Assembly: GCA_905178155.1 (NCBI GenBank)
Contig: CAJINV010000050.1
Location: forward strand, 1-17,474
Direction of reading: 5' to 3'
Source of the DNA: Amoebophrya sp. A120
Taxonomy: Eukaryota; Protista; Dinoflagellata
Length of the DNA: 17,474 nucleotides
In this document: one piece after another, positions 1-17,474 of the stretch
Position numbering within the stretch: the first letter of the stretch is position 1
Layout: each line of letters begins with the position of its first letter
Program-made: the position numbers and the translations under genes
The notes under the pieces: model-generated
Seen by the model: only the letters and a program-made list of their open reading frames with translations
What the model was told of the DNA's origin: nothing
Databases searched by the model: none

Positions 1-310
1 GCAAATCACACAAAACCCCCCCTGCTGATTTTTCCAACGCTGCAAAAAGCCGGCAAAAAAGCTGCCCGGTTCGACTCCGGAAACACTCTTGGAAGCTCTT
101 CGGGGTTCGGCTAGGTTTTTGGCGCTTCCGCGCGAAGGTTTTGCGGGTTGCAAATCACACCAAAACCCCCTCTGGTGATTTTTCCAACGTTGCAAAAAGC
201 CGGCAAAAAAGCTGCCCGGTTCGACTCCGGCAAGCAACTCTCTCGGAGGTTCTTCGGGGTTCGGCTAGGTTTTTGAAGTCTGTCTGCGAAAAGCGAAAGC
301 CCTTGCGGTT
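1..310. repeat. ~149-150 bp GC-rich tandem repeat, 2 copies visible, truncated by window start; each has a tRNA-type B-box
   Basis: GCAAATCACAC(C)AAAACCCCC...TGCAAAAAGCCGGCAAAAAAGCTGCCCGGTTCGACTCCGG...CTTCGGGGTTCGGCTAGGTTTTTG starts at 1 and 150; GGTTCGACTCC at 68-78 and 218-228. Confidence 0.9.
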
Positions 311-796: not shown

Positions 797-1161
797 ATGA
801 AGGGAAAGAAGAAAACCGTAGAGAATCACCTGGGAGCCCCAGTAACAATATGCAGCTTTTTGGAATACATATAGTGGTAGAACTCCTTTTATCACACACG
901 CGCCGCCAGCAGTGAAGTTCCTTTTTCTGAATCACAACAAAGAGAAAACCGAGACAAATGAGAGCAGGCGTTTTTATGGTTAGGGTAAAGTGTAGCCAGC
1001 GCTATGACAGAGACAGAGAAGCTTTTAGTTCTGTGCGAAGATAATCCGCTACATAGTATCGGGATCAAGTACTAATACATAATCGCTGCAATTCGCTATC
1101 CTAGTTGTCTACTACCGCAGGTTTCTTCTGATACTCAGCCGCTGCAAAGATGTATAATCTT

Positions 1162-1519
1162 CTACGTAATGCAAATTCGTCTGAGTCTGGGAGGCATGCA
1201 AACCTTCATAATTGTGGAGTTGAGAAGAACAAGAAGCAACAGAAAAAGTTTCTTTTTCTTTTTCTATTGCCTCTTGTCCTTGTTCATTCCCAGTTTACTG
1301 TTTTAGTGCTGCATAAATGCACCCTGTTGTAATGCTGCTTACGCATTGGATCGGTGTATGAGAGGAGTAGCGTGGACGCGCAAATAAAAGAAAAGTATTG
1401 GTATTCATCTTGAATGAAAGAACTTATCATGCCTCGGTGGGTAGTGAAGTCGAAATCCGTGGCGCATGTTGAGACTACCGTTGCAAGTTTCCAGACCCAG
1501 ACGCATTTGCATCTGATTG
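1162..1519. mobile_element. fold-back insertion, subfamily A, 358 bp
   Basis: left CTACGTAATGCAAATTCGTCTGAGTCTGG vs reverse complement of right end CAATCAGATGCAAATGCGTCTGGGTCTGG; flanks CTT/CTC. Confidence 0.75.
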
Positions 1520-1604
1520 CTCCAGCAAAATCGTACTGGAGGAGCACCAGCTGCTGGCCTCCAGTTTCGGCCTGTCCTACTCCCGACAACCGAAACGCCG
1601 AATC

Positions 1605-1827
1605 GTATGCAAGACAGATTCGCTGTCCACACACAAAAGATAGCACGAAACCTGACACCCGGAGCACTTGCGATGGCATGTTGAAAACGTGCTAACCAAT
1701 GGAGTAGAAAGAGATTAGAATAAATCCTCAGCATTGAGAAGAGAACCTGTTTTGTAACGAGCATGCAGATAATGACATGTAAGCGCAGCCATTGGTTGTA
1801 CGTGTGCAGCGAAGTTGTAGTGGATAG
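1605..1827 (+). mobile_element. fold-back insertion with GT...AG termini (candidate introner), 223 bp
   Basis: left GTATGCAAGACAGATTCGCTG vs rc right CTATCCACTACAACTTCGCTG (15/21); flanks ATC/ACC; removal keeps frame. Confidence 0.7.
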
Positions 1828-1861
1828 ACCAGCGAATCACCCGTTTGGAGCAGCGCATGGT

Positions 1862-2211
1862 GTATCGAAGAAAAAAGCTATGTTTTTGTTTAGTGTGAGT
1901 GTCCTGTCTTGTAGAGCCACAGCATGCAAAGCAGTTTACTCACATTTGTCATGTTGGATAGGCATGGAGCCCTCCCCTTTTCAAATAGCCACTCACGTCG
2001 TACTAGTATACGCATGACACACCTTCTCATTTTCAGATAGGCATGAAGCACCTTTTGGTATCGGCATAGATAAATAGATAAAAGCCTATCGTGCCAAACT
2101 ATGTTTAGCACGATAGGCGGTCTATTTATCGTAATACCGGGCTGTAGGCTTCTCAATCTCATGCGGTCGCGCCAACAAACTTAAACTAAAAGAGTTTTTT
2201 TCCTGCGATAT
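1862..2211. mobile_element. fold-back insertion, 350 bp
   Basis: left GTATCGAAGAAAAAAGCTATGTTTTTGTTTAG vs rc right ATATCGCAGGAAAAAAACTCTTTTAGTTTAAG; flanks GGT/GGC; removal with one TSD copy restores heptad RMATAEN. Confidence 0.8.
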
Positions 2212-2410
2212 GGCCACCGCCGAGAACCGGGTCACAAACGTGGAGGGCTCCGTGGTAGGACTCTCAAACCGCATGAATACGGTTGAGAACCGAGTCGACA
2301 AGGCGGAGGGTAAGATTGGCATCCTCGAGATTGCCGCCGAGGAGACCAAAATTGCGCTCGAGGCGGACGAGTATAAGGCTATCCGATGCAAATATGTCAC
2401 GGACTGAAAA

Positions 2411-2696
2411 GTATGAACTGCAAATGTGTCCGGGTCTGGAGGCGTGGAGCTTGTGATGCTGTCTTGTTTGGATACTCATTATATATAACACCTGTATTGC
2501 ATGACCAGCTAGAAGAGTCCAGTTTGTGCTAGTACGCGGAGGGTGCATTTTTCATGCGGACTCGGCATCAGAAAGTGAAAGGGTTCTGGAAATCTGTGAT
2601 GCTAAGTCATGCAATACAGGCGTTATGGGTCATGCAAAATTATATGCATGACAAGCCTGGCAATCTTCCAGACCCAGGCATAATTGCAGTTGATAG
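2411..2696 (+). mobile_element. fold-back insertion, subfamily A, GT...AG termini (candidate introner), 286 bp
   Basis: left GTATGAACTGCAAATGTGTCCGGGTCTGGA vs rc right CTATCAACTGCAATTATGCCTGGGTCTGGA (24/30); exact AAA/AAA TSD; four GCATGAC/GTCATGC motifs inside. Confidence 0.85.
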
Positions 2697-2920
2697 AAAG
2701 CAGAAATGTCACTTCGTTGTAGTGCTCCGGATGGCGTCGCCAGTGGCTGTCAATCACGCCTCAGCAAGAGGTTGCGGCAGCAGGAGCTTCTCGCTCTGCT
2801 CGTTGCCAGAAAGTTTGTGGAGCCCAGTTGGTACTAAGTAGCCAAGGTGGCGACTGCACGTGCCAAGGCTCGTCTTGTTCAAGCATGACATGGCTTCAAT
2901 AATGTACACACACACACAGA

Positions 2921-3127
2921 GAAGAAGAGCTAGTGCAAGCTCTGCTTTCCGTGGCAGTGACGTATTTATATTGGATAAAGAAGATAGCCGCGCAGCTGAC
3001 GTCCCTTCGCTCCCGCTACTTCGCTGGGCCGGTGTTCGCCGAGATGCAGGAGGCATTGGAGTATCCTGATGAAAATTATGGAAACTACCCTAGAAATTGG
3101 CCACGCATGTTTGACATGATCAACTAG
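2921..3127 (+). pseudogene. protein-like fragment, possibly the 3' part of the 1150 gene after stops/frameshift
   Basis: EEELVQALLSVAVTYLYWIKKIAAQLTSLRSRYFAGPVFAEMQEALEYPDENYGNYPRNWPRMFDMIN*; preceded by a short (CA)n run that could have slipped. Confidence 0.4.
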
Positions 3128-3464
3128 CAACGCAGAGACTGTGCTTTATAATTCTTGCGCTCGGTCTCGGATAAGGATTGCATTACAAAATCGGGTAGTT
3201 GGAGATTTTCTCTCCGCATATCGGAAACGCGTTTGACATGCCCTGGACGACGGAAAACATCAGGGACCTACTTATGCATTGCAAAAGGATCGCACCACTA
3301 GCAATACATTTAGAGCGCACAACAATGGGAAGTAGCCTCCCAAGTTGAACACGAGGTCGCATCGTAAAGCTGCCTAAGGTACTTTGGTGCCAGACTTGTC
3401 ATGCAGTCCTGCAAGTAGTGTGATTGTGATATTATGAGTGCGATACTTTTGTGAAGAATACTTC

Positions 3465-3788
3465 CTATGCGGTGCAAACATGTCTAGGTCCACTCTGAGA
3501 CCCTGACTCGCGGTTGAATCAACAGGCAGCATCGTGTAGGATTGAAACAAGGATCCAAGCGAGCACATACATGACAAAACTCCAGAGCTGAGATGCCTAT
3601 ATACGTGGCGCGCATGATAGTTAAGTACGCAGCTCCTGTGCCTCTTTACATGACAAAAGTACAGGCACTGGCGCTGGCTAGACACCCAATGCAACACTGA
3701 CAGAGCCCCAGTGGGCAACAAGAACAGGCACCAGTACAACTGTGACGCATCCTCCTCTTGCAGACTCTGACTAGTTTGCAACGCATAC
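3465..3788. mobile_element. fold-back insertion, subfamily A, CT...AC (GT...AG on minus strand), 324 bp
   Basis: left CTATGCGGTGCAAACATGTCTAGGTC vs rc right GTATGCGTTGCAAACTAGTCAGAGTC; TSD not clear (TTC/TGA). Confidence 0.7.
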
Positions 3789-3790
3789 TG

Positions 3791-4336
3791 ATGCCCCGGA
3801 AGTTCTCGCGGGAAACGGCCCCGGACTGCATCAACGACGGCTCTGAGTCTCTCCCGGAGCAGAAGCAGGCGCTGCACGTCTGGAAGGAATACGTACTCGA
3901 GTCGAAGTCTGCCTGCGACAAGATTCTGTTCGACCAGAGCATCGCCATGTCGGAAACAGAAATCAAGGCGCTGCAGATGTGTAGCGACCTGATCGGAGAC
4001 TTCTGCGACGGACTGCAGATCAAGACGGGGGACAGCAAGAATTTAACCATCAACCAGCACGAGACCTTATGGAGGGGAAGGGATTGTCTTTCATCTCTCA
4101 CACAGAAAATGAAAACTGCATCAGCAACATCCTAGTCCTACAAAGAAAGAAAATAAAAGCTACACTGTCATACGCTTACGCACCGGCACGGCATTGGCAT
4201 GCTGTTTTTTCCTTACACACTGGAGCTTTTTTTGGCCAAGTAGAACAACTGCGGAAAGCCATTCGCTTCCCCTCCATACATAAAAACCACTGCGGATTGC
4301 GGCCCAGCTTCCCCGCCGGACGCGCCCTCCGCGTAA
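3791..4336 (+). pseudogene. coding fragment of unknown function split by insertion 4067-4279
   Basis: GC3-rich frame MPRKFSRETAPDCINDG...KNLTINQHET (3791-4066) continues in frame after the insertion as IKTTADCGPASPPDAPSA* (4280-4336). Confidence 0.55.
4067..4279. mobile_element. fold-back insertion, 213 bp
   Basis: left TTATGGAGGGGAAGGGATTGTCTTTC vs rc right GTATGGAGGGGAAGCGAATGGCTTTC (22/26); TSD degenerate (ACC/ATA). Confidence 0.85.
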
Positions 4337-4733
4337 GAACTCATCTACACGCAGCTGGAGCTGAAACTGTACGTCTCTTTATCACTCATCTTCCTTGTTC
4401 GTCTTCTACAACTACGCTAGGCAATCACGGACAACAACGGCGCAAAGAGAAAACGGACACCCACGTGGTTTCGCCGGTATATTGAGGAATTTACGTTAGG
4501 TTTGAGTTTGTGTTTGTCATGCATGATATTATCTCCTTCTTACGGAGGCGAGAAAAATTTAATTTTTTTGAAAGAAAATAGCCACAGATGCTTTTTTTGT
4601 ACCTTCATCTCGCCGATGCAAGAAATAATAAAATAAACTTCGGAGGTGGACGACTGTAGGGTCGACAGGTCGGGCGGTTCGAGACGAGATCGACAGGTCG
4701 GGCACAGGAACGAACTTCGTGAAAAACGTGTGT

Positions 4734-4980
4734 TTATCGGCTGCAAACATGTCGGGAGCTGGAAACTTTTGTTGCTCATACCGGGACTGCATGACGGCCA
4801 CTCAGACTGCAGAAGAGCAGGAATATGACTAAAGGACTCATTCGTATTTAGCATTACAAACTGCGATCCAGCATGACAAAAGGATTTGCCGCTCCTGCCA
4901 TTCATGCGTCACAGATCTTGCAGTTGTCCTTGAAGGTATCACATCACAAATCCAGGCCCAGACATTTTTGCAAGGCATAG
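4734..4980. mobile_element. fold-back insertion, subfamily A, 247 bp, ends ...GCATAG
   Basis: left TTATCGGCTGCAAACATGTCGGGAGCTGGA vs rc right CTATGCCTTGCAAAAATGTCTGGGCCTGGA; flanks TGT/GGT; GCATGAC at 4789 and 4871. Confidence 0.7.
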
Positions 4981-6405
4981 GGTGCTTGTCCGCTAACAGG
5001 TGTTGCAAAGATCACCACGATGTATTTTACACACCTTTTTCAATCACAGTGTGCACGGCATGACAGTTTTGGCAGCTGGCTGCAGAAGAACAAGAACATA
5101 AAAGTGGTGCATCAATGTCGTGCGAGAAGTAGATCTGCAGGGACAGTAGATACACGCAGACTTTGTCCAACGAAGCAAACACAATTGGACATTTCCATTT
5201 GAAGAATTTATAAAACGTCGTCAAGCATCTACTCCACTATCACTAGTCACACAAAAATTTACAGGTTTTAGAACAGAATTTTTTGATTACAGTAAGTACA
5301 CTCTTTCGCGAGTACAGGCAAAGCTCGTTCTAATTGATATCCATTGAAAAGCATGTGAAGTAGCGTGCATTTATTTTTTTGTATCTCAGATTCGGTACCA
5401 AGTCTTTGCAATTACGCTGTGTGCGCCTGTCCAATTGCAAAGATGATTGCGACTGCAGCAGCAGCTGGAATGAGAATTAGAACACGAAATACAGATAAGT
5501 CGTCCCATGTTGGCGGTTAAATTGGTAGCGACTGAAATTCAAATTGTAACTCATTGTATAGTAGCAGCAAGTGGCGCAAGAAGCGTCAATGCTTTCCCCG
5601 TATCGACGTCTTGGTCCGTAGACGTACAGAAGGGGACGAGCGCAGCCCCGAAACTGGGTCGCAAGCAGCAATTACTATTCTGGCAATATTACTTCTGCTG
5701 CGCTTGCGTGAGTGTTCAAAAATGAAGCTGCGGAACTCCGATAAAAAAATTCGGGCGCGTGTTGACGTTTTCTGTGTCTACGATAAGTGTCGAAGTTGTA
5801 AGATTTCGTGCGTCGCGCAAGAGCGTCCTGCGAGTCATGCGCCCCATGATTGACTATTTTCTCGGTTTTTCAATTCAGCAAATTTGCTTCGCGTGCTCCG
5901 CCGCACGATACAAACATAAATGTAACTTTTGTGCTACGCTTTCGAGCCTCGATCGTCCATCTATTTTTGTTCTGTAGCGATTTACGTGGGATTTCGTGTC
6001 GTCTGTGCATTGTGTTGTCGTTCTCGACCAAGATCTTTATTTGGTCTCTCGTGAAGCGGCATTGATTTTCGCGCACTTGATGAAGTACTAGACGCAGCTG
6101 CTGATTAGCGATTGAATTTACAACGCATCAAGATTGAGCAACATCGCGTACTCGACATGCGAAAAACTGAAATATTCTTCTCCGTTCGCAGATCGTTGAG
6201 TACAGTTTAGGGTGTCCTTAGAGAAGACTTCGTTTTTTGTTTCACCACGACTGAAGCCGAAGAGGAAAACATGCCTTTGCGTCAATCCTCGTCCCGGTCC
6301 CGACCTATTCCTCCTTAACCACGACAGCGCACGTTGTGCGCGCCGTGAAAGCTCAGCCGAAGTATACAACGACCACTAGGTACTAGTGTTGGATTCGCCA
6401 CTAAC

Positions 6406-7882
6406 ATGACGAGAAGAGACAATAATGGGGCGAGAGGATCCGCAGACCCGCCTCCCTCCGGTCGCGAAGTGGACGATGATGAAGAGGCGACGAGACAGAG
6501 GGAAGAGCGGATGCAAGCGCGGCGGCAACGATGCGACCAGCTTCTCGCGGTTGCGGACGGCGCGGAGGAGAACCGGGAAAACAAAGGGCAAACGCAACAG
6601 CAGCAGGAAGGGACAGCTAGCTCTACTAGCGCCAGCGGGCAAAGCCTGGGCCGGCATCCTGGTCCTCCGTCCGACCACGACGAAGCTACTTCCACCAAAT
6701 CTGTGTCCACGACGCCCTTGGAGGCCACGCAGAGCGGTGTGAACACGGATCCGGAGGACAAAACCGGCAGCCGCCTAATATGCATTGCAAATGTGATGTC
6801 TGGGGGTGGATCATGGGCGCATCAAGTTTGTCATGCCACGACTTGAGTTGGATTTCATTGTGCTTGAGCTTGTGGTGCATGTACAACAGAAAAACAGCCG
6901 CGCAGAAGAGAACTTTTGATGATCAAGAAGAGGACAGTAAGTGACTTTCCATGCAAAGTGGGCACTCTTGGGAAGTTCTCCAAAGAACTTGTCATCCAAC
7001 GGCCTGCGTTACAGAATTTTAGTTTTGCTAACTTCCGGACCACAAGTGGCACAGTTGTGAGTCTAGTTCAAAGACCTTCAGCAGTCGTGCTCCTGCAGAC
7101 CCCCCGGACATGATTGCAAAGCATACCTGCGCTCGCTGTATAGCAACACACTGCGGAAACTCAACAAGGACGTAGAGGACTCCAGAAGCAAGATAACGGC
7201 TGTGCATTCCCAAGTCCAATTTAGTTGGGATGAGGTTCATCGTGTCGTCGGTGACGGGCAGTGGGAGGTAGATCTCGTGCAGATGAAAGCTACAATCAGG
7301 AAGCTGGGCTACATGAATCAGGACCTGTGGCGACAGATTGACACCATTGCAGCCGGTCGGGGCCACGCCGCTGCCAATCCATCTGCGACTACTCGCGCAC
7401 TCATAATGAAGTTCAACAATGTATCCTATGTAAAAACGTCCCCACCCACGAATCAGAATCAAGAAGTAGATAGGGACTTTCCCATCAAAGTCATCAAGTT
7501 TATTTAAGTATAGTGCATGACAAATTTGATCTGATAGCGTAGTGCTGTTTAGCCTGTTCAACCGCATCGAAAATCCACTGCCTTGCACTTATTCCAGCAT
7601 GACGAGGAGCTCCAACAAATTACTAGCATTAGAAAAAAATATGTCCCCTGTCCTTGTGGCTGCGCATGAGAAAGATTTATTTTCGGCTCGCAGATTCATA
7701 GCATGACATTGACAACTTCTGGGCGGGAACGTTTTTACACAGAATACCAAAATCCTAGTTACTCTAGCCTGAAGGACGCCGTGAGTGCGGTGCAAGACGA
7801 TGTGGACGACGTGAAGGTTACCGCAGCTGAGCTGGAGACGAACTATGGTCGACTTTTTGAAGACTTATTCACTGGAAAGTAA
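6406..7882 (+). CDS. split hypothetical protein (~270 aa; low-complexity acidic N-terminus, helical C-terminus); segments 6406-6777, 7127-7426, 7742-7882
   Basis: Stop-free after removing two insertions: MTRRDNNG...DKTGSRL|LRSLYSNTLRKLNKDVEDSRSKITAVHSQVQFSWDEV...KFNNVS|EYQNPSYSSLKDAVSAVQDDVDDVKVTAAELETNYGRLFEDLFTGK*; second junction uncertain by 1 nt per side; may continue via a GT at 7879. Confidence 0.6.
6778..7126. mobile_element. fold-back insertion, subfamily A, AT...AC termini, 349 bp
   Basis: left ATATGCATTGCAAATGTGATGTCTGGGGGT vs rc right GTATGCTTTGCAATCATGTCCGGGGGGT; flanks CTA/CTG (both Leu codons in frame). Confidence 0.85.
7426..7742. mobile_element. fold-back insertion, ~317 bp
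   Basis: left CTATGTAAAAACGTCCCCACCC vs rc right CTGTGTAAAAACGTTCCCGCCC (19/22); three GCATGAC inside; TSD ambiguous. Confidence 0.85.
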
Positions 7883-8044
7883 CCGTTCCCAGCGAATTTG
7901 TCATGCAAGACATGTAGGTAAATTCAGTGTTTGTCATGCATAATGCAGGAAATGCAGGAGGGAATGGCCAATTTTCAGGGAATAAGACCACTCGGCGGAG
8001 GATGGAGCGCCGATGTTCGTGATTCAGCAGGTCGGTCTCTTCCA

Positions 8045-8287
8045 GTATGGCGTTCTCAAATGTTACATTCACAACTGTTACATGATTTGTCATGCAAAAA
8101 CACTATCGCTCTTACTTCACACGATCAAGCCTTCTCCGCATGACAACTTCTCGTCGCGCTAGATAGCATTATAATCTGCTCCAAACCTGTAATGCAAAAG
8201 GCCCAATCTTTTCCCTTTCACTTTTGCCGTTTTTGCATGACAAATTTCATGTAACAGTTGAGAGTGTAACGTTTGAGAACGCCATAT
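8045..8287. mobile_element. fold-back insertion, subfamily B, 243 bp, ~56-bp TIRs
   Basis: GTATGGCGTTCTCAAATGTTACATTCACAACTGTTACATGATTTGTCATGCAAAAA (8045-8100) inverted at 8230-8287; exact CCA/CCA TSD. Confidence 0.95.
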
Positions 8288-8758
8288 CCACCAGAATCTC
8301 CAGCAGCAACTGCTCCTGCTTGAGCAGAGCATGGAAACAAACAAGAAAAAGTTACTACGCCTGCAGGGGAACAAGGGCCCAGTTGCAGAGGACGCACTAC
8401 ACGCGCCACAAGGATCATTTTCGGCTGCACACGACGTCGACGGAGGACAAACCAGTAGCAAAATTTCCCTTGCTGGGGCTAAAGTCACCAAAAATGCAGC
8501 ACACCGCCTGTCGGCCAGCAAAGGTTCGGCACTCACAACGGCGCCCAGCAGCCGAAACAGTAAGAGCAGTATTCTCGGCGAGGACGGCAGTACAGCAAAT
8601 TTCGACGACGAAGATTTTGAAATCGAGGATTCGAGCTCCGATACCGCAACTGAGAACAGAGCAGGTGGAAGCAAACTCGCTATGCTGAACAGGGGGCACA
8701 TGCAGCTACAGTCCCATGCGGACGACGAAGATGTTCCGAATTCGAGCTGTGGCGAATC

Positions 8759-8966
8759 GTATGCGTTGCAAATAAAGTATCGTGGTGCTCCGTGCCAGTG
8801 GAAGCTGCATTGCAATTATTACTTTGTTTGTAGAACAGAAATGCTGTTTGTCATGCGAGTTTAGGTGGAAAGAAGCAAATCTGTTAGACATCACGTCCGG
8901 TAGCGGTACTGAATTGCTCGTGCCCTTCTCGGCCTCGGGGTGCGATACTTCTTCTGCAAGGCATAA
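8759..8966. mobile_element. fold-back insertion (A-related), 208 bp
   Basis: left GTATGCGTTGCAAATAAAGTATCG vs rc right TTATGCCTTGCAGAAGAAGTATCG (19/24); exact ATC/ATC TSD; TTTGTCATGC at 8847. Confidence 0.85.
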
Positions 8967-9186
8967 ATCGATTTTGTCTACAATTTCCTGCGGATGCTGC
9001 CGCCGGAAACGGTACAACGCCTCCAGGAGCTTCGGCTCGACCTGTTTGGCTGGAGTACAGTCACCCTGGTTCATCCTGTTGTACCCGTTCCTTCTCTATT
9101 ATGGTCGCGCTCCGTGGGAAATCGCCTTCGGCACAGTGGAAGTTTTTTGTGGTTCTTATGCATGATGAGTTCAATGTCAATCGTTG

Positions 9187-9468
9187 CTATGTAGTGCAAA
9201 CGGACTTTTTATTCAAGTTCAAGTATCAAAGGAGCTTCTGCTGTACCTCTTGCATGCCTGAAAGAAAAATCTGTGTTGCATAGCCAGCAAAGACGGCGGT
9301 TTTGTGCTATTCATACTTGAGGGGCAATTTGTCGTGATAAGCGTGCTAAACATCGGGCTGCGTCAAATGAACTTGTCATGCTGGGGTGCGCTTGAAAGCA
9401 CTAGAAGTACCCACTCTGTAGCATCACAAATTTCATCCCAACCCAGACGACATATATACAAGGCATAG
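9187..9468. mobile_element. tentative degraded subfamily A insertion
   Basis: right end CCCAACCCAGAC...CAAGGCATAG resembles the 4980 end; left CTATGTAGTGCAAA is only a weak partner; no TSD. Confidence 0.35.
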
Positions 9469-9816
9469 TGTCAGTGGTCAGGCAATGCCTGCAACCATTT
9501 CCTGCTCCAATTTGTTGTCGATTTTCCACGCGGCGCTTCCATATTCACGGAATTTACCTCTACTGCAGCGGCTTCGGCGATCTGAATCAGAGCAGGAAAG
9601 GCGCAAAAAGGCAGGTACAGGGAATGTTGATTCATCGGCGTCATTGATTACCAGCACCCTTCGTGTTTTTTCTGCTCGTCCTCGTAGTACTGGTACTAGA
9701 AGAATCTCCTGCACGAAGGTGGGACAGTCGTTGTCTTTTGTTCCCAGAAATGTGTTCAAAAATCTGACTTCCGACAGGTCCGAGCCCCTCGCTCTCCTCT
9801 TTCTCGGGTGGCGAGG

Positions 9817-10065
9817 ACGTTACCCGGACGGCTTTCCGCTCAGGTTTGTTATGATTCGGATCTGGATGTTTTTCGTCGTTACGTCGAAGGAGGTGGAGTT
9901 CTAGCGCCATTGAACCGGGAAGGTGAATCACGGAAGGAAGAACTCCCGGGTGCGGCAGAGCCTACTGCTGGCGCTGTCACAGCAATGCAGGAAGAGGGGG
10001 CTGTGGTCGATGAGGCGCGAGGTCTGCAGGCGTTGGACAACAAAGTAGTGAATTTTGATTGCTGA
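9817..10065 (+). pseudogene. probable exon fragment upstream of the 10220 frame
   Basis: LPGRLSAQVCYDSDLDVFRRYVEGGGVLAPLNREGESRKEELPGAAEP...; pyrimidine-rich acceptor TTTTCTTTTGCAG ends at 10194. Confidence 0.4.
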
Positions 10066-10414
10066 GAGGCCTGTTTCGTACAATTGGTCATTTCGCAATA
10101 AAAGTGATCTATCAGGTGCTGCATAAGCTTCCATACGACGTGTTGATGAAGTTCGTGTTCTTCGTGAACGATCTCGTTTGATTTTCTTTTGCAGCTCCAG
10201 GTCCAGGGAAATAATCTAGTACCTGATCCTGCAGCATCTTCAAGAGAATGAAAATACAATACTTCTCGTCCAGGTAGCAAACCTCACACTGTGGCTGGAT
10301 GAGTTTGCGGGGACCTATGAAGCCAAATGGACAGCGGCGCTCGACGAGTACAAAACGGCGTGGAAGGAAGTGCTGGATAAGTACATGAGCGGAAGCCTGG
10401 AACCAGCGCTCGAT

Positions 10415-10681
10415 GTATCAAATGCAAAAGTGTCTTGGTCTGGAAGAATGCAACTTGTGATGCTGCATTTGGATGTCTAGTAGAAAATTTGTGCTGCATG
10501 AGCAGCAAAAGCAATCTAATTTTCGCTATGCGGAGAGGGCATTTGTCATGCGGAATAGGCATCAAGAATCCATTAGAAAACCTGGGATGCTAGTGCACAC
10601 ATCACGGACATCATGGCGCATGTAAACCGTGCGTGACACGTCTCAGAATCTTCCAGACCCAGACACTTTTGCATTCGATAC
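10415..10681. mobile_element. fold-back insertion, subfamily A, 267 bp, GT...AC
   Basis: 33-bp TIR GTATCAAATGCAAAAGTGTCTTGGTCTGGAAGA vs rc GTATCGAATGCAAAAGTGTCTGGGTCTGGAAGA (31/33); exact GAT/GAT TSD. Confidence 0.95.
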
Positions 10682-10860
10682 GATGAGGCGCGCAACAAAA
10701 CCAAAAAGCTCTTTGACGAGTCCAAGAAAAAAATGTATGACGAGATCAAGAACGACTTGATTGAATTAGCGAAGCGGATTGAAGAAGGCGAAAAGATCGC
10801 GAAAGAAAAAGCAAAGAACGCCACCCAGCAGCTAATACAATTGGGCAACGAACTATTTCA

Positions 10861-11138
10861 CTATGATGCTCTCAAACGTTACACTGATTGTTGTTACTCA
10901 CCTGGTCGTTCTGTGATACAAGGTAGCAAAAGGGACAGGGCAAAGGCAGGGCGGATGCGGAACCTTAGACGTTTCGAATTACAGACCCGGCACAGATTTA
11001 TGTAAGTGCTATCCATCACTTTTTTCGAGAATTTGTTATGGGAAGTCGCTTGGTTATGTGGATGGTGATGTGGGTCGCGACATTTGTCGAAAAAATCATG
11101 TAACAGCAAAGAGTGTAACGCTTGAGAACTCCATATTA
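10861..11138. mobile_element. fold-back insertion, subfamily B, ~278 bp
   Basis: left CTATGATGCTCTCAAACGTTACACT vs rc right ATATGGAGTTCTCAAGCGTTACACT; TCA/TCA flanks with a 2-nt offset. Confidence 0.85.
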
Positions 11139-11630
11139 TCAGCTAGAACGCGGCCGGCTTGCGCTAGTCCTTGCTGCCTACGACGGAATCCGCAAGCAAC
11201 TTCGACTCTGTCTAGCAGGCGGCATGGTAGTCTTAACAAGCTGTGTAAGTCGAGGTTTTCGTTCTGATCAGTTTCAGTGCAGAGCGGTCTCGGAACAACG
11301 ATGACTGTTACTGTTTATCAGCTACACAGAAAATGACCTTCGTTTTGTAGTTTTTTCGGACAAAAAAGCATCGTCAAGAAAAACAAACACCTTCTACCAC
11401 AGGATCCTTTCTCGGAAGCACGACCGGCTACCGGTGTTGGCTGTCTTGGAGTCGAAACTTTGCTTCTTCCACTTCCATCGATTTCTTGAAGTACTTGGTC
11501 GTCCAGAACAAATCCAGGTCAGACGAGATTCCTGGTGAGGCTGCACTTCTACCCCATCTTTTACTTTTACATCATCGTGACCCGACAAGAAGACAACATT
11601 GTAAAAAATTAAATGAAACAGCAATCCCTG

Positions 11631-11907
11631 ATATCAATTGCAGATGTGTCTGGGTCTGGAAGATTGCAAGAGTTGTTATGCGTATTTGCATCAGCATGAC
11701 CCAACATGTAGTTATCTGTGAAGGTGCGTGGATGTTGCTCAAGCATCACAGATTTGGTGACAGCCTCCTGATGCCTATATCACGAGCAAAATGACCTCTC
11801 AGCGTAGCGAAAAGTGGACTCTCCCCGCTTCTCACGCAATACAGATTTTGCACAATCCAAAGGCTGCAGCTGCACCTTGCAGGCCCAGATATATTTGCAC
11901 TGTATAC
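11631..11907. mobile_element. fold-back insertion, subfamily A, 277 bp, AT...AC
   Basis: left ATATCAATTGCAGATGTGTCTGGGTCTG vs rc right GTATACAGTGCAAATATATCTGGGCCTG (20/28); flanks CTG/ATG. Confidence 0.8.
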
Positions 11908-12858
11908 ATGTGTATACTTGAGTTTAATTTTTGCCATGCAAAATGCGAGAACATCTACTTACATCAGCGACAAGAGACCACGGGCACCTTGAACGTAAAC
12001 ATCTTGTTTCTGAAAGCTGCGGACTTTTCTTAGTCTAACCGGACGATCACACCAACTGATTTTGCGATGGAAGCACTCCTGGTGCATCGGTCATAGAAGA
12101 TTCACACTTCACCCAGCACAACAAGTGCAGGTTTGCAGTTGATTTCCGCTCCCCGACCACGACCAGTACCAGATCTTCGTGTTCGCGTTTTGACAAGAAT
12201 AAACCTCATTTCGAGGATTTGTTGTCATTGTTGTTCTAATGGATCGATTCGGTTTTGCTTCCGTTTTATTCACCATTCTCTCCCTGGCAAAACAAGTGTC
12301 GCCTTTGATACGAAGCCCGCTCCTGCAGCATTTTCCACCCCGTCGGTAATGAATATGATCGGTGGAGGGCGAGGGCATTGCCTCACTCGGTTTCCCTACA
12401 GGGATTGACGCAGTGGTCGTTGTAAAGTACGACGAAAAATGTCGAAAAGTGCAGCGTATAAAAATATCATTCAATATCACATCTTAGATTGTGGTTGTGC
12501 CACTGCTCTTGCGGGACCGTCGACCTCTTGTAATTTCTCTGCAGCTCGTGCTCGGTCTCATGTCAACATAATAATACAGAAGTATTTTACTTCATTCGGG
12601 AACATCGGTTTCTGCCTTAATATCTTCGAATAGTCGTGAGATATTTCTTTCTTTCATGTCGTGTGGTGGGTCGTGTGTCTCTGTCTGTGTCGTAGCTTGT
12701 CTAGCGACTGCAGTGGAAGCGTCGCGATTACGCCTCTCATTTGTGGGCTCTCTGGGTGTGCTACCAAATTCTACAGCATCATCTATAGTGGAAAGAAAAG
12801 TTTTAAAGATATCTTCCAAATGATGCAGCAAATAGGCGCGTCGTCGTCCGAAGTATAT

Positions 12859-13126
12859 GTATACCATAGTATGATTTGCACCATGTTCATGTTGCTCTCA
12901 TGAAAAGAACAACAATTATATTCCACATCTCATTCTTGCGACTGACAATGAAAAAAAAAAAAAAACAGCTAGAAGTACGGCCATCCTGGTACTAATTTTT
13001 TTCCGAAGATTATATATGGTAGCCATAAAATGTTGCGCGCACGAGAGCTCAGAGCTCGTCTTTTTTCCTTTCCAGTCCTAGGTAGCGCACCGCAACTTAT
13101 TGGGAGGATTTAGCACTCTCGTATAT
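12859..13126. mobile_element. tentative fold-back insertion, 268 bp
   Basis: left GTATACCATAGT vs rc right ATATACGAGAGT; flanks TAT/TGT; removal gives RYLPNDAANRRVVVRSI|LSLLRFVVFAQRFFDRTTKNAG. Confidence 0.4.
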
Positions 13127-13279
13127 TGTCACTTTTACGCTTCGTAGTATTTGCACAGCGCTTCTTCGATAGAACAACAAAGAATGCCGGGTAACGCAAA
13201 CAGTGGAGCAAGGAAGAAAGAAAATCCAACTTTGTCCACCCAGCGTTGGCAAAAATGGAAACAGGAAGACGAAGAAAAA

Positions 13280-13532
13280 GTATGGCATTCTCGCACTTTA
13301 CGCTGACCATTGTTACGCGATTTGTCATGCCGAATAACGGGCACCCTGTACGCGATCCAGTAGCTTCTACTTGGTGCGCTAGATCGTTTTTTTTGAATCA
13401 GTGCCAAATCTGTAATGCACGAGGCGCAAGACCATGACCAGGACCCCACACCCTTCCCGTTTTTGAATTGCATTTCAGTACAAAATTATGCAAGAGCAAC
13501 CAGTGTAGGTGTAGTGTGGGAGAATGTCATAA
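13280..13532. mobile_element. fold-back insertion, subfamily B, 253 bp
   Basis: left GTATGGCATTCTCGCACTTTAC vs rc right TTATGACATTCTCCCACACTAC; AAA/AAA flanks; TTTGTCATGC at 13321. Confidence 0.85.
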
Positions 13533-13546
13533 AAAAAAGCAGAGAA

Positions 13547-13839
13547 ATATGGGAGTGTCAGGATTGAACTCGACAAAGTTGAAATAACTTGCAACGCCTA
13601 AAATCAATACCAGTCGGAAGCTCAATTTTTCAGCCGCGCATGACAAATTTGAGCAGCGTATAAATCCAGCTTGTCATGCTATTTCGGGACAGAATCAGAA
13701 GGCGTCTTTTATCATGCTCCCAAACAGGCTGACAGTCGGCCTCACTTGCCATCCCTGTAAGGGAGGCATTTCATGCCTTGCAATTTATGCATGACAAATT
13801 ATTTCAACTTTGTCGATTTCGGTCCTGACGCTTCAATCA
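13547..13839. mobile_element. fold-back insertion, 293 bp
   Basis: left ATATGGGAGTGTCAGGATTGAACTCGACAAAGTTGAAATAA vs rc right TGATTGAAGCGTCAGGACCGAAATCGACAAAGTTGAAATAA; flanks GAA/GCA. Confidence 0.9.
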
Positions 13840-13921
13840 GCAACAGTGGCAGGAGGACGAGCGAGCGTCCGAACAGACGATCATCGGACTCATGCGGATT
13901 TTTGTTGGTTTTTATCAATTC

Positions 13922-14206
13922 CTATGCAACAAGAAAAAAACTGTGTAGAAGGTTTACCCTTGTGTTGCGCTGACGATACAAACTAGTATACGCTTGTCAT
14001 GCTTGTTGACATGGATGATACCTAGCATCACGCATGCTTTTACTTTTACGCGCTACTTACGCATGAGAAGATTCTGTTGGCATCCATGCCTGGTTGTCTG
14101 GCGGAGAAGCATGACAACAAAAATTGTGAAGATTTCTGAGACAGATAATTGCCCATGCTGTGTTCTGCTCAAAGAGTTACGCCAACACAATTTTTTTCTT
14201 CAATAA
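13922..14206. mobile_element. fold-back insertion, 285 bp
   Basis: left CTATGCAACAAGAAAAAAACTGTGT vs rc right TTATTGAAGAAAAAAAATTGTGT; flanks TTC/TTG; motifs at 13996 and 14109. Confidence 0.6.
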
Positions 14207-14817
14207 TTGCGAAAGCTCCAAACCTAGCATTGGTACTCGGCGCTCCACCAGCCGTGGTCAGCATCACGGAAGCGGGTGCAGCCTCGTCAGCCTGAAGAAG
14301 CCACGCTCTGTATTACATCTCCTAGACACCGTCTTGATGGTGAATTTGATATGCCCCTGCACATTTCTCCAACAAACTCAAACAGAAGATTTCCTCGCTC
14401 CTAGAGAAAAATTCTGGGTCACGACCTTTGCATAATGAATGTACATCTCCCGACTTGCTAGGCATGTTTTGTCATTTGTGTATTGATAAGAACCTCGTCT
14501 GTTTCATTCTTTTTCTGGGAGTCTCGGTCCTGCTTTACAACCTGCTGTACAACGACAACAAGGGGTATCACATACAAACATGTCTGTGCTCTCTGGAGCA
14601 AAGCAAACTTGCAAATGGTACGCTGACAGGACAGAAACATTTTTCATGTGTCTGCGAAAACCTACAGGAACTTGTTCTGTCTTTTACCCAAGAAGGCTTT
14701 CCTTTCAAAATTGTCATGCTTAATACAGTCAGTCCGATACTACCATTGTGGTATCACGTTTCTGCGGATCCAGACATCTTCGCAATGCATAATGACGATG
14801 AAGTGGCCGAGGAGTGG

Positions 14818-15945
14818 GTATGACGGCGTCAACGTACCCAACAAGCATCGCACCCAAGGGGATAAAATTTTTTTTTTTCACAGTAAACGAATTAGATATA
14901 GTTAATTTCGCTACTTAAAGTGCATTAGTTTATTTCATGTGAATTAGCTATGTAAAAAAGACGGCTTTTACGGGTTGCCGGGTGCTAGATCGCCGATATC
15001 CAGCTCGACGGATTCACCGCGGAACCCTAGCAAAAAAACGAGGAAGTGCCCCATGGCGTGGCGTCTGTCTACTGCCCGCGCTTTCCATTGTGCGTGGCCT
15101 GTGGGAGGTTTGGCGCAGCTAGCCGCATCCAGGGGATAGCTGACGGCAAGCCGGCACGGTAAACACGCAAAGCCGCGCGCCCTGCTTATGAGAAAAGGCT
15201 GAGCAGCGTGCCATCGGTTGCCAGGGGGGGTTTCGCCAAAAAGCACCCGCAAGCCAAGTGCAACATGGTCCGCAGGCCGCGGCCTGCAGGGCCGCAGGCG
15301 CGAGGCGGGGGCGCGAGGGGGGTCCGCGGAAGGGGGTCCACGCAGGGCCTCCCGTAGGGCATATTTTTTCCCCTAGCCCCGATGCTGTGGTCGTTTTGTC
15401 CCTTGTCAAAAAGGGAGCATCTCGGAGGGGCATCGCGGACGGGGATCCCGCACTCTCGTGTTGTCCTGTGTGAGGTTAATCTGCCCAGGTAGGAACACAA
15501 CGAAGCCGGGGCAATTTGGATAGCCTCACAAAATGGCTCCCAAGCTCGGCGGAAAGTGGCAGCAAGGCGCAAACAAAACACAGAAAACGGCGGCAAGGTG
15601 CGACACGGCCGTCGCAACTACGTCGTCCTGCTGCCTCGCCACAGGAAGCTGGCCGCCGATCCTCTGCCCCGTGCGCCGCTTCGTGCACTATCTGCGCCAC
15701 GCCTTCGTGTGCAGTATCCCGGCGCCCCTGCGTGGAGACAACCGAGGCGAATCCGTGGAGCTGGATATCGGCGATCTGGCACCCGGCAACCCTTCGAAAA
15801 CGTCTTGTCTAGCTACTTAATCATCTACCCATTTCAATTAAGTACTTGATATAGGTATTTTACCGGCCAGTCCGGCACTAGTTGAAACTTTTTTTTTGAT
15901 CCTTTATGGGTGAGTTGCCTCTTGGGTACGTTGACGCCGTCATAG
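14818..15945 (+). mobile_element. fold-back insertion with GT...AG termini (best introner candidate), enlarged by a nested element
   Basis: left GTATGACGGCGTCAACGTACCCAACAAGCA vs rc right CTATGACGGCGTCAACGTACCCAAGAGGCA (23-bp perfect core); exact TGG/TGG TSD; phase-0 join HNDDEVAEEW|WDDAGYKANRAKSYQELMATIDR*. Confidence 0.95.
14972..15792. mobile_element. nested GC-rich non-autonomous TIR element (true ends may extend to 14919-15811)
   Basis: 51-bp inverted repeats 14972-15022 / 15742-15792 (GGGTTGCCGGGTGCTAGATCGCCGATATCCAGCTC..., 4 mismatches); sharp GC rise; no transposase ORF; GCTACTTAA direct repeat at 14910-14918 and 15812-15820. Confidence 0.85.
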
Positions 15946-16029
15946 TGGGACGACGCTGGTTATAAAGCCAACCGAGCGAAGTCATACCAGGAGTTGATGG
16001 CAACAATAGACCGCTAAACAGTCGTCGTG

Positions 16030-16760
16030 AGTTTTACTTTTACTTTGTCGTGGTTTTTTCACTTTTTTTCGCGTAATTCTTTTCAGGAAACTTTTCTTCT
16101 CATTGTCATTTACGAAGATCTGACACAGCTGAGCTTCGTCTACACGTTCCTTTTCTTCACATATCTTTCATTCCCGTGGGCGTCATATTCCGGCACTTCG
16201 AGTAATGAAGATGTCTTTTCAAAGAACAATATATTGATAAACAAAAACTACTAAAACACTATATCAAAGAGGAACAGTCGCCACACTATTTGTGTGTGGC
16301 CTTTTCTTCTTACCGAAGAGGGCCGTCGCCTTTTTTCCCTGCCTCGGACAATTGACTGAGAGAGTCGCTTCTTGTTTGAAAGGTCCTGCACCTGTCGATG
16401 TAGATTCTTGCAGCACCAGAGGGAAGTCGGTCTTGTCCTCTGTTATGGAAATCATTGAGTCACACGTGCTGTCGTTTGTTGGAGAGAAGGTCAATTTATT
16501 GTTGTTGCACGGAGCTCGTCGGTCATCTCTCCTCGTTCGGCAAGTGGTTTGCAACTTTACTCAATAGTGTGCGTGATACACTGATCAAAATTCTCGAGAA
16601 AAGCGGCCCGATTTGGAAACCGTGTCGCTATTGTCAAATCGCTTTTCGTTTGTCTCGAACCAATTCGGCGTTGCGCGCAGCCCTTCTCGTTGTGCTCGCT
16701 AAGGGTCGTGAACTTGTGACCTTGTCTGTCCCGTCTGAATTGTCACTCAAAACGACACTG
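16030..16760 (-). pseudogene. possible decayed minus-strand coding region
   Basis: K/R/S/T-rich frames (e.g. 16264-16554) broken by several stops; no recognisable domain. Confidence 0.25.
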
Positions 16761-17048
16761 TAAACAAGCATCAATCCAATGCTGTGGATGTTGGTGCTGC
16801 CGACGACGGACGGCGCATATGAAGTTAGTAGAGCTTAAGAGCGTACTACGGAGAGTGAGTGAGGGCGAGTGGAGCAAAGTTGGAAAATTGTTCTTGCTAC
16901 GACAATCGTTGTAGTAGTTACTTACTTAAATGTGTGATATGGTCAAGTGTCACAGCATAGAGCTTCTTGTACGTCGTCGCTCCGGCTAAGATTCCACACG
17001 AGGTTCTATTTGGATTACTACAGTTTTATTAATTACGATTGCAGAAAT

Positions 17049-17474
17049 ATGCGCGGTCGGACGAGACCCCGGAGGGCGCAGTGGGCCGCCCTAGCAACAT
17101 CACACGAGAGAATGACTGCGCAGTTGCAAGCTAGCAACAGCACAAATCCCCCCGCGGGGTTGGCGTCGACGAAAGAACAGCCGGCTAGTGGTAGAAACAG
17201 CACAAACCCGCCCGCGGAGTTGGCCCCGGCTAAGGAAGATGAAGCGGTATCCTGTGCAAAAGTATCATACTCGTAGTAATTGCAGTCATGCATTACAAAT
17301 CTCCTTTCCAAGGTAAAACAGCATGACAAATTTTATTTCTCATGCTGAGCAAATTTGTCATGCAATTTATACTAGTACGAATAGGATGCTTTTGCAATGC
17401 ATAAACGGCTGGTGGCAGCAACAGCACAAAGACAAACCCGCCCGCGGAGTTGGCCCCGGCTAAGGAAGATGAAG
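17049..17474 (+). CDS. partial low-complexity repeat protein, split by insertion 17247-17404, runs off the window
   Basis: MRGRTRPRR...ASNSTNPPAGLASTKEQPASGRNSTNPPAELAPAKEDEA|TAGGSNSTKTNPPAELAPAKEDE; acceptor-like TTGCAG ends at 17044. Confidence 0.55.
17136..17474 (+). repeat. ~60-bp coding tandem repeat (3 copies)
   Basis: AACAGCACAAA...CC(C/G)CCCGCGG(G/A)GTTGGC at 17136, 17196 and 17420; 34+ bp identical between copies 2 and 3. Confidence 0.9.
17247..17404. mobile_element. fold-back insertion (A-related), 158 bp
   Basis: left GTATCCTGTGCAAAAGTATCATACTCGTAGTA vs rc right TTATGCATTGCAAAAGCATCCTATTCGTACTA (24/32); flanks GCG/ACG; motifs at 17285, 17321, 17354. Confidence 0.85.

Follow-up and report, generated by a model that had tools for sequence, protein, structure and literature searches.

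The window analysed here is a stretch of 17,474 nucleotides (nt) of Amoebophrya sp. A120 (contig CAJINV010000050.1), in which the genes are interrupted about once per kilobase by small fold-back inserts, and these inserts are spliced out of RNA. Each insert is a TAT...ATA core with a 5-bp target site duplication (TSD). The cuts lie in a fixed register (-1/+4), the first 1 nt ahead of TAT and the second 4 nt beyond ATA, independent of the orientation of the element; this was seen at 13 junctions of a single window in a single RNA sample. The elements are already published introner elements of the A120 type; the additions made here are their corrected anatomy, the fixed register and its independence of orientation. 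The fixed cutting position itself may be unpublished.

Before any RNA joint had been seen, the window was scanned for TAT...ATA pairs that are complementary inward of their ends (score of at least 9). This returned 23 pairs, whereas 15 dinucleotide-shuffled versions gave 0-3 pairs each. Dense fold-back inserts with such ends had been described in an earlier, sequence-only reading of this DNA, and are thus confirmed. That reading counted 19 clear insertions over about 5.2 kb; the scan and the RNA joints together define 22 intron units that take up 7,309 of the 17,474 bases, or 24 elements if a nested copy (2412-2695) and two back-to-back copies (3273-3460 and 3466-3787) are taken separately. 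The element ends share the consensus TAT(G/C)nnnTGCAAA, with TAT at 21/22 5' ends and A at positions 11, 12 and 13 in 16, 14 and 19 of 22, and the GCATGACAA/TTGTCATGC motif is enriched within the elements (43 matches in 7,217 bases vs. 8 in 10,280 bases outside). Cores are 119-600 bp long, except for one nested case. The summed depth in X1, the set of contigs that hold the inserts, reached 1e3-1e5 on several elements (about 1e5 on element 10416) vs. about 45 for unique DNA; the elements are therefore genomic repeats.

The length of the duplication was read from the bases abutting the 22 cores. Direct repeats of 5 bp had an identity of 0.64, compared with 0.20-0.37 for repeat lengths of 2-4 and 6-9 bp; the 5-bp repeat was exact in 3/22 cores. 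A 3-bp duplication outside N-TAT...ATA-N termini, as proposed earlier, does not describe these elements, as at the TAT...ATA ends the 3-bp identity was just 0.20-0.21, and the triplets reported as exact (ATC, GAT, TGG, CCA and AAA) each form the centre of a 5-bp duplication. The first element starts at 1163 and not at about 1150. The 3-bp TSD of CACTA and PIF/Harbinger MITEs, whose ends and targets the earlier reading had found not to match the termini, is absent here. A terminal stem formed by terminal inverted repeats (TIRs) was predicted by folding for most elements.

The removal of the inserts was seen in contigs of one sample from one study. In the X1 contigs, which span most of the window, the inserts are present and no letters differ outside a GC-rich repeat. 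In contrast, contigs X3-X6 skip the fold-backs: among the 15 of 27 joints that are listed, 12 join sequences across fold-backs and the other 3 across GT-AG introns (4477-4645, 9615-9777 and 10045-10273, all on the + strand). As these ordinary introns are skipped too, with that at 4477-4645 serving as a control, X3-X6 can be regarded as RNA. The same contigs do not cover the intergenic bins 1-583 and 12244-12826, one of them carries a loose A-run after 12101, and their identity to the window is at least 99%. The joint 6777^7130 was read from contig pieces of X3, X5 and X6, and the nested and the back-to-back copies are likewise removed. Four more introns (13280, 13547, 14565 and 14818) are set by 11-nt and 22-nt exons of the RNA contigs, and a further four (7421, 7865, 8045 and 10861) were fitted by length arithmetic against the RNA records. 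These results bear out the earlier reading of the inserts as introners or non-canonical introns. Low-depth RNA-type contigs keep intron sequence at 3452-3821, 11601-11937 and 14210-14522, which may represent incomplete splicing, pre-mRNA or DNA carry-over.

All 13 junctions listed (13/13) remove the core plus 5 nt, and the sole start common to them is 1 nt before TAT, which places the end 4 nt after ATA. Five of the 13 junctions are unable to slide, and four of these belong to cores found blind; altogether, 10/13 cores had been found before the RNA was seen. The RNA contigs were decisive in this respect, since restoration of reading frames cannot separate the registers: removal of the core plus 2 nt also keeps the frames open. 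The junctions predicted earlier from the letters, 6777^7127, 10414^10682 and 14817^15946, were each 3 nt short of those in the RNA contigs (6777^7130, 10414^10685 and 14817^15949). The first intron base was G in 11, T in 5, C in 3 and A in 3 of 22 introns, none of which (0/22) ends in AG, and the introns occur in all three phases and in untranslated regions (UTRs). Two members of one family, 10416 and 11632, lie in opposite orientations (as judged from 21/21 shared relatives), and both are spliced. When an element is removed with exactly 5 nt, the sequence is again as it was before the insertion, whatever the phase, the target sequence or the orientation.

In-silico removal rejoined + strand frames of 247 amino acids (aa; gene 1) and 695 aa (gene 2), in agreement with the earlier reading. 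At least two elements (4735-4979 and 11632-11906) are in 3' UTRs. Gene 1 (transcript span 1039-5600, coding sequence (CDS) 1150-4336, + strand) contains seven introner introns in its CDS. The first, 1162-1522, has a degenerate core, TAC...ATT (1163-1518), the ends CT..TC and the joint 1161^1523; its inner stem pairs in the mirror register. It is followed by 1605-1830 (core 1606-1826, ends GT..CC, joint 1603^1830, which slides by 1) and 1862-2214 (core 1863-2210, ends GT..GC, unique joint 1861^2215). The intron 2379-2981 (core 2380-2977, unique joint 2378^2982) holds the nested element 2412-2695, which has its own 4/5 duplication, and 3061-3224 (core 3062-3220, unique joint 3060^3225) has a weak TIR (11/20). 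The next one, 3272-3791, is a two-element intron, from which 3273-3460 and 3466-3787 are removed jointly (joint 3271^3792). A single 5-bp spacer lies between the two copies, giving a series of three related 5-mers; by the -1/+4 rule the exon between them would have zero length, so that the pair would be removed as one unit or recursively. The last, 4067-4282, has the core 4068-4278, the ends TT..TA and the unique joint 4066^4283. The 3' UTR (+ strand) contains the GT-AG intron 4477-4645 and an introner intron, 4734-4983 (core 4735-4979, joint 4731^4982, which slides by 2). The spliced model is exactly 1700 nt long, equal to record 5 of X4.

Gene 2 (transcript span 6133-12099, CDS 6406-11146, + strand) has eight introner and two GT-AG introns in its CDS. 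The intron 6778-7129 (core 6779-7125, ends AT..TG) has the unique joint 6777^7130. Three introns were placed by arithmetic: 7421-7750 (core 7422-7746), at which a contig piece stops at 7420 and a 166-nt record gap fits; 7865-7988 (core 7866-7984, 119 nt); and 8045-8290 (core 8046-8286, TIR 37/40), after which a piece restarts at 8287 with a 4-nt slide. Exact 5-bp TSDs flank the introners of 8759-8969 (core 8760-8965, joint 8754^8966) and 10415-10684 (core 10416-10680, joint 10410^10681), and both joints slide by 5; the latter element is of a high-copy family. Between them lies 9099-9547 (core 9100-9543, joint 9097^9547). At 10861-11139 (core 10862-11135), a piece stops at 10860, and the 3' end was set by the -1/+4 rule. 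An introner intron of the 3' UTR occupies 11631-11910 (core 11632-11906, joint 11628^11909). The model of gene 2 would match the 2858-nt record of X3 if one more intron, of 176 nt, lay within 11140-11630.

In gene 3 (12976-16268), introner removal alone gave no long frame, and further joints are outside the 15 of 27 listed. Its + strand introner introns are 13280-13535 (core 13281-13531), 13547-13842 (core TAT...ATC, 13548-13838), 14565-14795 (core 14566-14791) and 14818-15948 (core 14819-15944, exact 5-bp TSD). Two micro-exons between adjacent introners, 13536-13546 (11 nt) and 14796-14817 (22 nt), are kept in the RNA contigs. The introner of 14818-15948 holds a GC-rich (about 63%) repeated insert at about 14943-15821, which is unrelated to its host, has imperfect inverted ends of about 80 nt and an X1 depth of 200-500; it gave no Pfam match in three frames and no match among the metagenome loci described below. 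The last fold-back element of the window, 17247-17407 (+ strand, core 17248-17403, 4/5 TSD), comes from the scan, and its joint is absent among the 15 of 27 listed.

Metagenome contigs contain at least 158 stretches that fit the TIR pattern, and the 80 listed all share one assembly prefix; the pattern had no match (0) in viral contigs. The related set comprises loci L001-L157 with 326 fold-backs, in families 67-78% identical to the window elements. An exact 5-bp repeat was present in 202/326 of these fold-backs vs. 27, 7 and 3 at 2-4 bp and 0/326 at 6-9 bp, in a set that the exact-match search biases toward perfect TSDs. An SNF2 exon of the relative had two matches at E <= 1e-100, one of them labelled Amoebrophrya A25 at 55%, which suggests that the loci probably come from another Amoebophrya-like lineage; a homologue search with an exon of L049 found nothing. 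In 42/300 related elements, frame-restoring removal gave open frames of 150 codons or more on each side vs. 2-4 for other removals, elements with fewer than 3 of 5 TSD matches being left out of this count. In the relative, 5-bp-duplicated elements interrupt or adjoin conserved domains of a DNA ligase (with a DRMBL domain; L009, 623-891), SNF2 helicase (L016, 3808-4132) and KIN17 (L040, 3001-3257). The orientations of family members relative to the inferred gene strand were split (12/16, 6/13 and 7/10). The predicted intron ends appear random, with GT..AG in 3/133.

We consider it very probable that the inserts are introners of the A120 type, built as TAT...ATA with a 5-bp duplication and cut in the -1/+4 register. 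Several observations weigh against it. The RNA evidence consists of assembled contigs of a single sample and study, labelled as RNA by guess and possibly not independent of the A120 annotation, and the joints listed are 15 of 27. The raw-read RNA runs X9 and X10 lack the locus, their reads reaching no more than TIR ends, at a likeness of 90-95%. The cores 1163, 1606 and 3062, three of the 13, were placed after the joint was known. In the predicted folds, the terminal pairs of 3062 and 14566 are out of register, and for 1163, 11632 and 13548 the inner stem alone is supported. The relative's SNF2 gene, after removal of core plus 5 nt, keeps a one-residue gap near the junction with respect to both homologues. 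Finally, the legend of Fig. 3 in the report on A120 introner elements (Farhat et al. 2021, PMC7789003) describes the splice sites as variable relative to the hairpin.

The elements are likely non-autonomous DNA transposons. A DNA transposase with a 5-bp stagger would have inserted them, probably an integrase-type enzyme like those of Ginger or IS3EU, as features of these two groups (see below) suggest. The exon would retain the first four bases of the upstream duplicate and the fifth base of the downstream duplicate. A relaxed spliceosome probably makes the cuts, with the terminal hairpin setting its position. That a U2-type spliceosome does the chemistry, reading the T at +2 and the A at +3 that the TIR supplies, with the hairpin replacing U1 and the 3' AG, seems to us rather probable. 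This view is based on the top non-canonical intron types of both A120 and A25, which would place TA at +2/+3 as in a normal donor, and on the reported presence of most spliceosome parts. A perfect terminal helix is not the ruler, since the termini of several spliced elements pair poorly in folding.

The same elements could instead be removed outside the spliceosome, by a structure-specific endonuclease that cuts at a constant stagger about the hairpin and a ligase, in the manner of tRNA splicing or IRE1 or as suggested for the non-conventional introns of euglenids. The absence of AG ends and the occurrence of all four first bases among the 22 introns would fit such enzymes, as would the random look of the relative's predicted ends, the splicing of both orientations and the report that U1 small nuclear RNA (snRNA) was undetected in A25 or A120 (PMC7789003). 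On the other hand, all nine top non-canonical intron types of A120 have T as the second base and all nine of A25 start with TT (9/9 each; Table S4, PMC7789003), and the introner repeats of A25 start with TTA (PMC7789003); with these starts, the cut would fall 1 nt ahead of TA in both strains, as if TA occupied the +2/+3 positions of a spliceosomal donor. Moreover, U2, U4, U5, U6 and 83/89 spliceosomal proteins are reported in A120 (PMC7789003), and the register is kept despite poorly pairing termini. A leaning to G as the first intron base (11/22) also speaks against these enzymes, but weakly: in mismatched pairs it was 7 vs. 1 (two-sided p 0.07; a second test gave p 0.09), and the drift is absent from the relative (40/133). 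We regard removal by these enzymes as unlikely, though worth keeping in view.

The skipping of the inserts could also be understood if the short contigs were DNA of another stage or strain, with the elements lost by programmed DNA elimination, as are the internal eliminated sequences (IESs) of ciliates, or missing from empty alleles. TA-type termini do resemble ciliate IES ends, and X3-X6 are called RNA by guess only. Nevertheless, the contigs skip three GT-AG introns, leave intergenic bins uncovered, carry an A-run and match the window almost perfectly, which makes this very improbable. Equally, frames would rejoin if ordinary miniature inverted-repeat transposable elements (MITEs) lay in dead genes, because an insertion with its duplication is reversible. 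In line with that, the exons of genes 1 and 2 had no Pfam family above the cut-off, and gene 1 had no homologue besides itself in the exon protein search; sub-cut-off Pfam matches of window exons (coiled-coil families and Endotoxin_C2) were treated as coiled-coil noise. The chance that the genes are dead is nonetheless next to negligible: the elements are removed exactly in transcripts, so that the RNA joints refute it, the two frames stay open across 7 and 8 diverged inserts, and the relative has the long flanking frames given above, including those of DNA ligase, SNF2 and KIN17.

For A120, Farhat et al. 2021 (PMC7789003) describe 1,954 families with 29,850 introner elements altogether, with inverted repeats that start with TAT + 7 nt + AAA and direct repeats of 3-5 nt; the legend of its Fig. 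S19 gives 5-bp direct repeats. The window elements share with them the organism label, RNA-supported non-canonical introns, the TAT + 7 nt + AAA start, short direct repeats and similar sizes; they differ in having one TSD length (5) and the -1/+4 register, whereas the paper gives 3-5 nt and variable sites. The exon search for gene 1 found a single protein, 100% identical and named Amoebophrya sp. A120, and the spliced model is identical to it over 247 aa (P0001). The novelty implied earlier, which supposed that no catalogued family would match, is thus lost: the locus encodes an annotated A120 protein, and the elements fit the introner elements published for A120 (PMC7789003).

Among 40 of the 58 A120 rows of a later survey, most families are TIR DNA elements without an assigned superfamily (Gozashti et al. 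2025, PMC12130899), and no common splice register is given for them in those rows. Family 38 of that survey is Ginger, with a 5-bp TSD and TA/TA termini as in the window; however, it is about 810 bp long and has integrase-like homology (PMC12130899), unlike the window cores, which are shorter apart from the one nested case and in which no transposase was found. TA..TA termini are common to the window elements and IS3EU/GingerRoot, whose usual TSD is 6 bp and not 5 bp (PMC10045372). No transposase family was detected in 96 frames scanned (16 + 80), including those of the GC-rich insert and of a 1,104-bp TAT...ATA element of the relative (L019, 105-1208). The latter, of 58% GC, is flanked by a 5-bp duplication without mismatch, and its open frame of 238 codons gave no Pfam match at 1e-8.

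The introners of Micromonas and Aureococcus are also MITE-like, with TIRs and TSDs, and give scar-free intron gain via the duplication, but they use canonical splice motifs (PMC7789003, PMC11282704); such GT/GC-AG sites are absent from the window, as no intron there ends in AG. The non-canonical introns of Fritillaria borealis and euglenids resemble the window elements in a TIR hairpin that joins the ends, a TSD at the junctions and a transposon origin (PMC11282704). F. borealis, however, prefers AG-AC/AG-AT ends, and euglenid introns are marked by Y|R junctions together with CAG/CTG at +4..6/-8..-6 (PMC11282704); the window shows neither pattern, its intron ends being N-TAT...ATA-NNNN with any base at the cuts. 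No statement of a fixed register was found in the literature covered, which did not extend to subscription papers; figures 3 and S19-S25 of Farhat et al. may show one.

As the elements are already published, the discovery value of these results is low; the refinement of the register is useful. In the published view, the splice motifs are without a clear signature and are assigned no mechanism. If -1/+4 were true at every junction, the diversity of splice motifs would be the random 5-bp target sequence showing through, and the register would provide a rule by which to annotate genomes of the A120 type, as well as sharply defined substrates for asking how splicing works in an apparently U1-less cell. 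Scar-free removal would make insertions into genes nearly neutral, which would explain their density, and, being possible in any frame and orientation, it would explain the spread of the elements. More tentatively, one geometric rule, indifferent to the terminal bases, valid in both orientations and the exact reverse of transposition, may serve tens of thousands of Amoebophrya introners by a structure-guided route without U1 or GT-AG, possibly a non-spliceosomal one; we rather doubt that it reaches so far.

Two repeat regions lie near the ends of the window. At 1-440, two direct repeats are spaced 150 bp apart, with a summed X1 depth of about 900 and without cover by RNA contigs; a 17-nt AT-rich word at about 424-440 returns at about 16914-16930 and is possibly the end of another repeat family. 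At 17142-17474, a 43-nt coding repeat (NPPAELAPAKEDE-like) is present three times, with an element inserted between the copies, and a joint in X1 that goes back 230 bases there indicates that the array may be longer.

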